Source of the DNA: Candidatus Dormiibacterota bacterium
GTDB taxonomy: Bacteria > Chloroflexota > Dormibacteria > Aeolococcales > Aeolococcaceae
Reading direction: 5' to 3'
Assembly (NCBI GenBank): GCA_035552595.1
Contig: DASZKZ010000032.1
Location: 15,456 to 79,455 of the forward strand
DNA: 64,000 nt
This document shows positions 1,434 to 59,278 of the stretch, one piece after another; position 1 is the stretch's first letter, and each line of letters opens with the position of its first letter. A program made the translations under genes and the position numbers. The notes beneath the pieces were generated by a model. That model ran no database searches and was not told the DNA's origin. It saw nothing but the letters and a program-made list of their open reading frames with translations.

Positions 1434-2192
1434 TCAGCCGACCGACTCGAGGACGTTGTCGGGGATCTCGGCGTTGGCGTACACCTGCTGCACGTCGTCG
1501 TCCTCCTCGAGCGCGTCGAGGAGCCGGAGCACGGCGACGGCCTGCTTGGCGTCGAGAGGCACCGACGTGCTCGGGTTCATGGTCACCTCACCGGAGTCGA
1601 CGGTGTGACCGGCAGCCTCGATGGCGGCGCGTGCCGCCTCGAAGTCGCTGGGGCTGACGGTGACCACGACGCTGTCACCGTCGAGTCCGACGTCCCCCTC
1701 TGCACCGACGTCGACCACCTCGAGCAGCTCGAGCGCGAGCTCCTCGGGGTCGTATTTCCCTGCCGGCACTCGGAGCACCCCCTGCTGGGTGAACATCCAG
1801 CCCACGCTGTTGGTCTCCCCGAGCGACCCGCCGGCGCGGGTGAAGAGGTTGCGGATGGCGGCCACGGTGCGGTTGCGGTTGTCGGAGAGGACGTCGACCA
1901 TCACGGCCACACCGTGCGGACCGTATCCCTCGTAGCGGATCTCCTCGAGCTGGACGCCCTCCTTGCCTCCGGCCCCACGCTGCACGGCGCGCTCGACGTT
2001 GTCGGCGGGCATGTTGACCTCGCGCGCCTTCTGCATGGCCAGGCGCAGCCTGAAGTTCGAGGTGGGGTCGGGCCCACCCTCACGGGCGGCCACCGACAGC
2101 TCGCGGGTGACCTTGGTGAAGGTCTGGCCACGCTTGGCGTCGACGATCGCCTTCTTGTGCTTGATCCCCGCCCACTTGCTGTGACCGGACAT
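1434..2192 (-). CDS. yebC: YebC/PmpR family protein
   Basis: MSGHSKWAGIKHKK start with a GGAGG RBS; YEGYGPHGVAV and DNRNRT motifs. The ORF-track start (2333) is too far upstream. Confidence 0.93.
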   Translation of the reverse strand: MSGHSKWAGIKHKKAIVDAKRGQTFTKVTRELSVAAREGGPDPTSNFRLRLAMQKAREVNMPADNVERAVQRGAGGKEGVQLEEIRYEGYGPHGVAVMVDVLSDNRNRTVAAIRNLFTRAGGSLGETNSVGWMFTQQGVLRVPAGKYDPEELALELLEVVDVGAEGDVGLDGDSVVVTVSPSDFEAARAAIEAAGHTVDSGEVTMNPSTSVPLDAKQAVAVLRLLDALEEDDDVQQVYANAEIPDNVLESVG

Positions 2193-2336: not shown

Positions 2337-2364
2337 TTGACTAGCCGCCGGAGAGGGCTATCCT
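2337..2364 (+). promoter_or_regulatory. Sigma70-type promoter
   Basis: TTGACT (2337-2342), 16-nt spacer, TATCCT (2359-2364). It points at a region with no long CDS that ends in a terminator. Confidence 0.65.
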
Positions 2365-2370
2365 GAAGGT

Positions 2371-2697
2371 ACGGAACCGACTGCATACGGAGGAACCCTT
2401 CACGATGCGTACGGTCTTCGAGCTTCTCCGGCACACTCGAGCCGAGATTTAGGGCCCGACTCTCGGGTCGTCCTCGCCGCGGTCCTCGGCGCCACCGTTT
2501 GATACCCGGGCACGTTGCCCGAAGGGTTCCGGTGACTGGTTGGAAAGAGCGCAGAAGGGCGGCGGAGGCGACGAGGTCGGGCTGGCCAGCCGGCACCAGC
2601 AATGGTGCCCACAACAATCAGCCCGGCTCATCCGCCGGGCGGCCGACTCAGTTCGGCAGAGTTTCGGGGACCGGCCACAGCGCCGGTCCCTTTCTTT
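2371..2697 (+). ncRNA. Candidate structured ncRNA of about 330 nt, family unassigned (6S/Ms1-like rod possible)
   Basis: Flanked by a promoter and an intrinsic terminator. Nested helices 2428-2432/2634-2638, 2439-2444/2624-2629 and 2454-2460/2576-2582, plus a GCAA-tetraloop hairpin at 2592-2609. Confidence 0.55.
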
Positions 2698-3251
2698 GTG
2701 CCCAGGCCTTGCCGGGCCGACACCGCCGCATGGCCCGTCCACCAGAAGCGCAGCGGCAGCTCGGCCGCGCGGCTGATGCCCACTCGCGGGCCGCTCGACA
2801 GGGGGGCAGGCCGGGGGGCGGCCTCGAGGCGCAGCCGTCCCGGCCGGCAGAGATCGACGCCGTTGTCGGCGCCGCCGATGTGGAGGCCGCGGCAGAGGTT
2901 TCCGGGCCCGCTGAGCAGCTGCGAGGCTGCCACGGTCTCACCGCGGCGAGCACGGACGACGCGCTCGCCCCTCTCCACCGCGGCGGCGCGCAGCAGCACC
3001 GCCGCCGCCGTCCCATCCGGGCCGCAGATGACGTTGGCGCAGTGATGCACGCCGTAGCTGAAGTACACGTAGAGGTGCCCGGGCGGGCCGAACATGATCG
3101 CCGAGCGCGGGGTGGGGCCCCGGTGGGCGTGAGAGGCGGGGTCGTCCTCTCCGAGGTAGGCCTCCACCTCGACGATGCGGGCGCGGACCGCGTCCGGTGT
3201 CCCGGTGTCGACGGCCAGAACGGCGCCGACGAGGTCGCGGGCCACCTCCAC
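2628..3251 (-). CDS. mpg: DNA-3-methyladenine glycosylase (MPG/AAG family); true start may lie about 30-40 nt upstream
   Basis: RIVEVEAYLGEDDPASH, MFGPPGHLYVYFSYGVHHCANV, AVLLRA, GPGNLC and GPRVGIS motifs. Confidence 0.9.
   Translation of the reverse strand: MEVARDLVGAVLAVDTGTPDAVRARIVEVEAYLGEDDPASHAHRGPTPRSAIMFGPPGHLYVYFSYGVHHCANVICGPDGTAAAVLLRAAAVERGERVVRARRGETVAASQLLSGPGNLCRGLHIGGADNGVDLCRPGRLRLEAAPRPAPLSSGPRVGISRAAELPLRFWWTGHAAVSARQGLGTKKGTGAVAGPRNSAELSRPPGG
2667..2697 (+). terminator. Rho-independent terminator
   Basis: GGGACCGGC-cacagc-GCCGGTCCC 9-bp stem followed by TTTCTTT. Confidence 0.75.
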
Positions 3252-47274: not shown

Positions 47275-47332
47275 CGGCCCAGCCTAAGCGAGCCGGTGGA
47301 GAGCCGGCCTCGACGGGGTGGTCGGAACGACT

Positions 47333-47513
47333 AGCACCCGGCGGCCACGCCGTCCCGGGCTGAGCCCGAGTAACCAGGTGGGATCCCGCACGACGCCTTT
47401 CCCCATCCACGCGCACCGTGCGGAGGCCCGGGGTTGAGCGGACGAATATGAGGTTCCCGATGCGTTTGATGTTGGTCCAGCCGCGTATGGATGGCTGCGA
47501 CCAGCCGGGTGCC
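47333..47513 (-). ncRNA. ssrS: 6S RNA
   Basis: 181-nt rod with a GGCACCCGGC/GCCGGGUGCU closing stem, GGCUG/CAGCC and GGGAACC/GGAUCCC helices around a central bubble, and the 6S-like 3' motif GAUCCCACCUG...CGGGCUCA. TAGGAT lies 7 nt upstream. Located downstream of aspS. Confidence 0.82.
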
Positions 47514-58343: not shown

Positions 58344-59278
58344 CGCGACGCCTTGCGGATGACGTCGGCGTCGACGATCCCCAGCGTGGCCCCCGCATCC
58401 ATCACCTGCACCCGCCCATCGCTGGCGCGCAGCACGGCGTCGAGCGCATCCCGGAGCGTGGCACTCGCGTCGACGGTCTCGACCGGCGGCTGCTTGCCGT
58501 CGACCGGGGCGAGCGGGGCGTCGCGAACCTTGATGAGCGAGAGGCGGCGAACCATCCGTCCCTCCCCGAGGAAGTCCTTGACGAAATCGGAGGCGGGACG
58601 GGCGAGCAGCTCGGCCGGGGTGGCGTACTGCTGGAGCACGCCTCCCTGAGAGAAGAGCGCCACCCGGTCGCCGAGCCGGATCGCCTCGTCGATGTCGTGG
58701 GTGACGAAGACGATCGTCTTGCGCACCACCTGCTGGAGGCGGAGGAGCTCGTTCTGGAGGCGCTCGCGCGCGATCGGGTCGATGGCCCCGAAGGGCTCGT
58801 CCATGAGGAGGATGTTGGGATCGACCCCGAGAGCTCGCGCCACCCCGACACGCTGCCGCTCACCGCCGCTGAGCTCAGCGGGAAGGCGCTTGGCGTAGTG
58901 CGCCGCCGGCAGCCCCACCAGCTCGAGAAGCTCGTCGACACGTGCGCTGATGCGCTGCTTGTCCCAACCGGCAAGGCGGGGAACGGTGGCGACGTTCTCG
59001 GCGACCGTGTAGTGCGGGAAGAGACCGATCTGCTGGATCACGTAGCCGATGGAGCGGCGCAGGACGTTGACGTCGACCGTGGCGGTGTCGCTGCCGTCGA
59101 TGCTGATCGTCCCGGAGGTGGGCTCGATGAGACGGTTGATCATCTTCAGCGACGTGGTCTTGCCGCAGCCGGAAGGGCCGACGAAGATGACGATGTTGCC
59201 CGAGGGTATCTCCAGAGACAGCTCGTGCACGGCGTCGACATCCGCATAACGCTTGGTGACACGCTGGAAGGTGATCAC
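58340..59278 (-). CDS. Opu/ProV-type ABC ATP-binding protein
   Basis: GPSGCGKTT, LSGGERQRVG, LMDEPFGAIDP, FVTHDIDEA, CBS-like tail. Confidence 0.92.
   Translation of the reverse strand: MITFQRVTKRYADVDAVHELSLEIPSGNIVIFVGPSGCGKTTSLKMINRLIEPTSGTISIDGSDTATVDVNVLRRSIGYVIQQIGLFPHYTVAENVATVPRLAGWDKQRISARVDELLELVGLPAAHYAKRLPAELSGGERQRVGVARALGVDPNILLMDEPFGAIDPIARERLQNELLRLQQVVRKTIVFVTHDIDEAIRLGDRVALFSQGGVLQQYATPAELLARPASDFVKDFLGEGRMVRRLSLIKVRDAPLAPVDGKQPPVETVDASATLRDALDAVLRASDGRVQVMDAGATLGIVDADVIRKASR

Follow-up and report, generated by a model that had tools for sequence, protein, structure and literature searches.

The window analysed here is a stretch of 64,000 nt from a genome of the Dormibacteria. 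Near its left end, the genes yebC (1434–2192, minus strand) and mpg (2628–3251, minus strand; both named from Pfam assignments) flank a region that carries transcription signals on the opposite strand. A consensus scan places a sigma-70-type promoter at 2337–2364 (plus strand), with a −35 element TTGACT at 2337–2342, a 16-nt spacer and a −10 element TATCCT at 2359–2364. An intrinsic terminator detected by a similar scan (2666–2697, plus strand) consists of a 10-bp stem spanning 2666–2691, GGGGACCGGC/GCCGGTCCCT, which encloses the loop CACAGC and is followed by the T-rich tail TTCTTTGT. Between positions 2100 and 2900 there are two promoter-like sites compared to 0.0 expected from shuffled sequences, and two terminator-like sites compared to 0.4 expected. 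Transcription would start at about position 2371. An earlier, sequence-only reading of this DNA had described the promoter, a terminator with a U-tract and an orientation opposite to both neighbours, and had proposed an unannotated structured RNA gene with its own promoter and terminator. All of these are borne out, the last by a promoter at 50 of 57 homologous loci, by the terminators and by covarying helices. The comparative data confirm that the yebC–mpg spacer holds a real, independent and unannotated gene, whose predicted product is a structured RNA of approximately 327 nt (about 2371–2697, plus strand).

The same reading correctly stated that the transcript contains no long ORF, but overlooked a conserved short one. 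A perfect Shine–Dalgarno (SD) sequence, GGAGG (2389–2393, plus strand), is located 11 nt before the ATG of a 15-codon ORF (2405–2452, plus strand), which encodes MRTVFELLRHTRAEI and ends with TAG at 2450–2452. The segment GAGCCGAGATTT, previously likened to the entry of the 6S RNA bubble, is the last four codons of this ORF, A-E-I-stop. Across genera, a TTGAC-like −35 element and a TAnnnT −10 element occur at the same upstream distance in the 50 of 57 homologous loci mentioned above and in none of the control regions, and in almost all homologues a terminator lies 150–290 nt 3' of the ORF, with a total RNA length of 220–345 nt. Taken together, the comparative and consensus evidence describes a short, independent transcript with a dedicated promoter and terminator, as expected for a small-protein mRNA or a dual-function sRNA.

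Across 18 genomes of the window's genus, the 361-nt region from the promoter to the terminator shows 73–92% nucleotide identity; the part comprising the SD and the ORF is recognisable in two further genera. The ORF is retained in 18 of 18 same-genus genomes and across two families, with the family consensus M-R-T-V-W-Q-x-L-R-H-[GT]-R-A-E-x. Its length is usually 14–16 codons, reaching 20 codons in genera g3 and g5. Among 36 distinct ORF sequences seven residues are invariant, five of them encoded by synonymous codons (Arg9, for example, is encoded by CGG, AGG, CGA or CGT). The summed entropy of third codon positions (13.0) is about twice that of first (6.9) or second (6.7) positions, and pN/pS is 0.445 in frame versus 1.10 and 1.43 off frame, the in-frame value of 0.45 being only moderately low. 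Most homologues start with ATG, three genomes of family f2 with GTG and one genome of family f5 with TTG, while TAG, TAA and TGA all occur as stop codons. The SD is almost invariant; its distance from the AUG is long (11–15 nt). The substitution pattern of the predicted ORF is that of a translated sequence, and the ORF is very probably translated. The case for coding is weakened slightly by a few exceptions: genus g17 lacks a canonical start where its homologues have one and offers only a GTG that is fused to the SD; the start position is occupied by ATA in one f5 genome; and the frame of one f5 genome extends by read-through to 31 codons. Pairing with the leader may also account for part of the conservation of codons (ACC/ACG GUC).

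Two other coding interpretations were rejected. Minus-strand ORFs across it (122, 97 and 70 aa) have no Pfam matches and contain indels of lengths other than multiples of three in the alignment of the genus. A likeness of the peptide to ribosomal protein L34 (MKRTYQP...HGFR) is superficial, and the genome's own rpmH is located elsewhere. In genus g18 the ORF has 33 codons and an internally duplicated RTVW motif; at the g18 locus L162 (about 150–262) the N-terminal motif occurs twice, MRTVWGT...GRTIWQLLRHGRAER, which suggests that this longer ORF may have arisen with a partial tandem duplication inside the ORF.

The distribution of the ORF was surveyed with sequence patterns and a peptide profile. 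A degenerate SD-plus-ORF pattern has exactly one match per genome in 44 of the 161 genomes of the order, compared with none for a reversed control pattern. Over GTDB, with one genome per species, the ORF pattern yields 46 loci, almost all recorded as Candidatus Dormibacterota or Dormibacteria, among them Ca. Aeolococcus gillhamiae, Ca. Amunia macphersoniae and Ca. Dormibacter sp. A 15-column peptide profile detects matches in 114 of the order's 124 listed genomes, in families f1 and f2, mostly as one copy; the window's genome likewise has a single copy, and genomes of genus g14 have two or three copies of the unit. In an even sample of the phylum, searched with the same profile at E ≤ 0.001, all 22 members of the order match and none of about 379 phylum genomes outside the order does. 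Weaker matches in family f5 look genuine, as they combine an SD, a TTG or ATG start, a reading frame ending in ...IWQRLRRGRAE-stop, hairpins and a terminator, and the unit is probably present in this further family beyond the two. As judged by these searches, almost all genomes of one Dormibacteria order contain the predicted unit. Within genus g14, the loci L167/L178 (G052:C1) represent a second, diverged copy of the whole unit, with MMRTCWQRLRRGRAES, hairpins and a terminator. This copy is convergent with a gene for an FAD-dependent oxidoreductase and lies near genes for a UbiE-type methyltransferase, a thiolase and an inositol monophosphatase, a neighbourhood that gives no functional hint.

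The predicted folding energy of the 327-nt region 2371–2697 (plus strand) is −160 kcal/mol (z = −3.07). The reverse strand gives z = −3.69, and with similar values on both strands the folding energy has no power to choose between them; the plus strand was chosen because of the promoter, the T-tract, the G-U pairs in covarying helices and the ORF. At the 5' end, both the minimum free energy structure and the partition function predict a hairpin (2372–2420, plus strand) formed by the leader on one side and by the spacer, the start codon and codons 2–5 on the other; this hairpin encloses both the SD (GGAGG, 2389–2393) and the AUG (2405–2407). Both are predicted to be almost fully paired in the window, with unpaired probabilities of 0.02 (SD) and 0.01 (AUG). 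The 5' hairpin has z = −2.45 in the window compared to a mean of −1.06 over 25 representatives, and clearly exceeds shuffled sequences only in some genera, being strong in the genus of the window and modest elsewhere. In other genera a CAGACGG/CCGUCUG helix links the leader to codons 3–5, and the Thr codon, which reads ACG in the window's genus and ACC elsewhere, has a third base that covaries with its partner in the leader.

Directly after the stop codon begins the H1 domain (2453–2583, plus strand), whose basal helix is formed by GGCCCGAC (2453–2460) and GTCGGGCT (2576–2583). This helix is predicted in nearly every homologue, and the stop codon abuts H1 or lies within it; in the 20-codon forms of the ORF the stop codon is inside the H1 loop. 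Compensatory changes at the base of H1 include GCCCGAC/GUCGGGC, GCCCGAA/UUCGGGC and GCCCGGA/UCCGGGC. The part of H1 above its base is far more variable: the insert is about 30 nt long in genera g3, g5, g13 and g17 and about 110–170 nt elsewhere, with unrelated sequences in different groups of genera. In the window's genus it forms a branched domain and not a simple rod, and compensation is limited to the ACCG/CGGU helix and the base of H1. These observations divide the pairings listed in the sequence-only reading. The nested complementary segments are present in the sequence; covariation supports GCCCGAC/GTCGGGC (2454–2460/2576–2582), and CACCG/CGGTG shows one compensatory change within the genus. 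The rod fold assembled from them does not hold, with an H1 insert of about 30–170 nt that is essentially missing in several genera. A 10-bp pairing between 2392–2401 and 2521–2530 is perfect in the window, but its partners drift without compensation in other genomes of the genus. A pairing of 2412–2422 with 2663–2673 can form in the window with three G-U pairs, but is absent outside the genus.

Between H1 and the terminator there are three small hairpins. H2 (2592–2609, plus strand; GGCACC-AGCAAT-GGTGCC) is supported by covariation, with changes on both sides in 6 of 6 pairs and 93.4% of cells paired among 43 sequences; it corresponds to the GCAA hairpin of the sequence-only reading. H3 (2621–2640, plus strand; GCCCGGC-TCATCC-GCCGGGC) has a conserved stem sequence in which 4 of 7 pairs change on both sides; its loop is often AUYCC-like in other genera, and family f2 has a relative, UCCGGC-UUAUCC-GCCGGA. 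H4 (2642–2657, plus strand; GCCGA-CTCAGT-TCGGC) is also supported by covariation, with 97.2% of cells paired and an innermost pair that alternates between A-U and U-A (8 sequences). In the terminator, 8 of 10 pairs change on both sides. Using a covariance model built from 42 sequences, to which 43 were realigned, we found that 93.7% of cells in H2–H4 and the terminator are paired and that 19 of 28 pairs change on both sides. The observed values are reached by none of 500 shuffles, and sliding the pairing partners lowers the covariation score from 0.331 to 0.05–0.10, these figures being somewhat inflated by an alignment that was fitted to the covariance model and leans towards the tested structure. 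Covariation among homologues had been named as a check on the existence of the gene, and the alignment shows that the predicted H2, H3, H4 and terminator helices covary across genera, and the 3' hairpins are conserved and covary to a greater extent than a terminator alone would require. The same plan of SD, ORF, H1 at the stop codon, an H3-like hairpin, one additional hairpin and a terminator recurs in family f2 and in the g14 paralogue. The comparison shows that the predicted promoter, SD, ORF, H1 base, H2–H4 and terminator are kept as one unit in at least two families and in paralogues. A strand exchange between H1 and H3, which have identical GCCCGG/CCGGGC stems, was considered and rejected, as it is not kept in genus g4 or in family f2.

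In the common arrangement the RNA gene points right between left-pointing yebC and mpg genes. Genus g14 has the order RNA, tyrS, yebC, all on the same strand, and the f5 copies and the g14 paralogue are surrounded by unrelated genes, with neither yebC nor mpg in the inspected neighbourhoods of the f5 copies. The unit is often, but not always, found beside yebC and mpg. In the window, the 3' end of the RNA and the mpg ORF share 70 nt. Conservation of the Mpg domain and homology between genera both stop near residue 178 (about 2717), past which the mpg ORF continues for about 28 codons, antisense through the RNA terminator and H4 and into H3 (2621–2730, minus strand). Read on the minus strand, H3 together with TGATTGTTGT scores as terminator-like and resembles a terminator of mpg, and the convergent transcripts of the RNA gene and mpg would overlap by about 75 nt. 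The position between yebC and mpg in most genera and the terminator-like appearance of minus-strand H3 are what one would expect if the region were not a gene but conserved intergenic regulatory DNA, for example the control region of yebC joined to the terminator region of mpg. We regard this explanation as very improbable: the unit persists in g14 and f5 where both neighbours are missing, it occurs elsewhere as a paralogue, and the T-tract, the G-U pairs and the ORF are specific to one strand.

The sequence-only reading had gone on to suggest an RNA polymerase-binding RNA resembling 6S RNA or the actinobacterial Ms1 RNA. There is some outward likeness, as the RNA is GC-rich, stable, structured and abundant-looking and has a rod-like element in this genus. 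However, no Rfam family matches the region 2150–2850 even at E ≤ 10, which also means that no unrelated known family claims it, and no match to the 6S model (RF00013) was found in the 64-kb window at the gathering score or at E ≤ 0.5. A 6S RNA is about 180–200 nt long and has a conserved shape with a closing stem and a large central bubble. No closing stem between the 5' and 3' ends was found here, where the 5' end forms a local hairpin and the 3' end the terminator hairpin; the rod insert measures anything between 30 and 170 nt, the rod being missing in genera g3, g5, g13 and g17, and an SD and an ORF are present. Ms1 is an actinobacterial RNA, whereas the host here belongs to the Dormibacteria, and matches to Rfam models of any kind are absent. 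By sequence, structure and host, the RNA is not a 6S or Ms1 RNA, and a GC-rich rod is not enough for a 6S-like assignment.

A canonical 6S RNA had also been reported elsewhere in the window, but Rfam gives no support for calling it canonical. The segment 47332–47513 (minus strand) is presumably the one meant; it gives a full-length match to RF00013 of 22.1 bits, well below the gathering score of 46.4 (E = 0.029 in an 800-nt search). This candidate is syntenic with weak 6S matches in two relatives of the same genus. Searches of relatives gave only sub-threshold 6S matches, at a locus different from that of the RNA gene, and no genome of the clade reaches the cut-off; judging from these scores, the 6S RNA of the clade is probably divergent. 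A tRNA is the single Rfam match in the whole window at the gathering score. ARAGORN additionally calls a 91-nt tRNA-Val(gac) at 59035–59125 (plus strand), for which the Rfam tRNA model is silent both at the gathering score and at E ≤ 0.5; this call may be false or may represent an unusual tRNA. A tmRNA has a tRNA-like domain and a tag reading frame that lacks an SD and an AUG. ARAGORN finds none in the window, canonical tmRNA genes lie elsewhere in 18 of 21 relatives, and the ORF described here has both an SD and an AUG, which argues against a tmRNA. Hfq is not encoded in any of the 21 relatives, which makes an Hfq-type sRNA mechanism unlikely, and we rejected the model of an Hfq-dependent sRNA on this basis.

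A purely non-coding structured RNA, whether 6S/Ms1-like or binding some other protein, could still produce an ORF by accident through constraints at the RNA level. The stable fold and the covarying hairpins agree with such an explanation, as do the predicted pairing of SD and AUG in the window and the few lineages that lack a canonical start codon. Against it stand the maintained length and frame of the ORF, the exchange of start and stop codons among homologues, the preferential variation at third positions and an SD that is almost invariant. For the 6S/Ms1 version in particular, the absence of an Rfam match, the variable or absent rod, the separate weak 6S candidate at 47332–47513 and the non-actinobacterial host all count against it. 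We therefore consider a purely non-coding RNA quite unlikely.

These results lead us to propose that the structured transcript is probably a small-protein mRNA or a dual-function RNA of the kind represented by Spot 42, which encodes the 15-aa protein SpfP (PMC8916003). The likeness lies in a short, independent transcription unit that has a promoter and an intrinsic terminator to itself, and in a 15-codon ORF within a conserved RNA structure. The RNA would be translated into a cationic, amphipathic, arginine-rich peptide of 14–16 residues, which could act in trans as a small-protein regulator or a nucleic-acid binder, like SpfP of Spot 42. In the window's genus the 5' hairpin would sequester the SD and the AUG and in this way gate initiation. 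A terminating ribosome would have to melt the base of H1, which begins at the stop codon, and translation and RNA folding would thus be coupled. The 3' hairpin array would stabilise the RNA and may add a second function at the RNA level. SgrS/SgrT, SR1/SR1P and RNAIII/delta-haemolysin are other dual-function sRNAs that encode very small proteins. The RNA described here differs from the known dual-function sRNAs in its larger size (220–345 nt), in the lack of any sequence relationship, in a clade that does not encode Hfq, and in the location of the ORF at the 5' end with a long helix at the stop codon; its function is, moreover, a prediction from sequence.

The abutment of the stop codon and H1 invites comparison with TnaC and the fungal arginine attenuator peptide, regulatory nascent peptides that act at termination and control a downstream gene on the same transcript. 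These systems share with the present one a very short conserved ORF whose stop codon lies against a structural or regulatory element. In contrast, the transcript here ends at a terminator and in most genera has no downstream ORF. A leader-peptide attenuator was rejected on the grounds that the next gene, mpg, is convergent in most genera and that no conserved alternative pairing with the terminator exists. A cis-acting alternative, in which the nascent 15-mer stalls the ribosome at or near the stop codon, holds the base of H1 open and switches the downstream fold without any function in trans, could have as its output the stability of the RNA, read-through antisense to mpg or the exposure of a regulatory loop. 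It would account for a stop codon that abuts or lies inside H1 in nearly all homologues and for the conserved R-A-E near the C-terminus; the whole peptide would be inside the exit tunnel at termination, and the 70-nt overlap with the mpg ORF in the window also speaks for it. Several observations nevertheless make this cis-acting mechanism rather unlikely in our view. In most genera no gene follows on the same strand, and in g14 and f5 the unit occurs without mpg or yebC. No conserved anti-terminator pairing was found, the pairing of 2412–2422 with 2663–2673 being specific to the genus, and the N-terminal residues are conserved as much as the C-terminal ones.

The very short ORF, the strong folding of the mRNA and the predicted sequestration of its SD and AUG also recall type I toxin–antitoxin modules, in which a stable, translationally silenced mRNA encodes a small toxic peptide. 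Such toxins are hydrophobic and insert into membranes, whereas the peptide described here is charged, with three to five Arg, one His and one Glu, and has no hydrophobic stretch and no transmembrane segment. The unit is, furthermore, single-copy and vertically conserved with stable synteny, and the scan of 2100–2900 detected no antisense promoter–terminator unit besides the 3' end of mpg. We regard a toxin–antitoxin module as very improbable.

Returning to the small-protein or dual-function RNA that we favour, its peptide has some resemblance to the N proteins of phages lambda and P22, arginine-rich-motif RNA-binding peptides that bind boxB hairpins: it is short and cationic, has several Arg and one aromatic residue, and is encoded beside small conserved GC hairpins. 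The likeness is one of resemblance only, with no homology, and binding of the peptide to H2–H4 is pure speculation by analogy. We consider it unlikely that the unit is a translation-coupled RNP switch, in which the 15-mer binds one of the hairpins H2–H4 of its own transcript or the terminating ribosome remodels H1. If it were, the unit would be a lineage-specific housekeeping RNP or a sensor peculiar to the Dormibacteria and not a simple small-protein mRNA.

Dormibacteria are uncultured bacteria abundant in cold, nutrient-poor soils. We know of nothing reported on their regulatory RNAs or small proteins, and a literature search found no paper pairing Dormibacterota with small RNAs. Judging from its sequence, a 15-codon ORF in a structured RNA of this kind constitutes an apparently new and undescribed gene family restricted to the Dormibacteria. 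The predicted gene is near-universal, lineage-specific and single-copy in one order, and has been missed by annotation pipelines; its peptide is a further candidate for the very small set of bacterial proteins that are conserved at a length of about 15 residues. Its layout is unusual, with the stop codon of the ORF set against a long helix that is followed by a covarying hairpin array, and the unit could serve as a compact system for studying the coupling of translation and RNA folding. One further element is located in the H1 insert, where a G/U-rich and apparently unpaired sequence, CCGGUGAYUGGUUGGAA (2531–2549), is kept across four genera with a long insert, with homologues in genera g11, g15 and g24; it could be a base-pairing seed or a protein-binding site.
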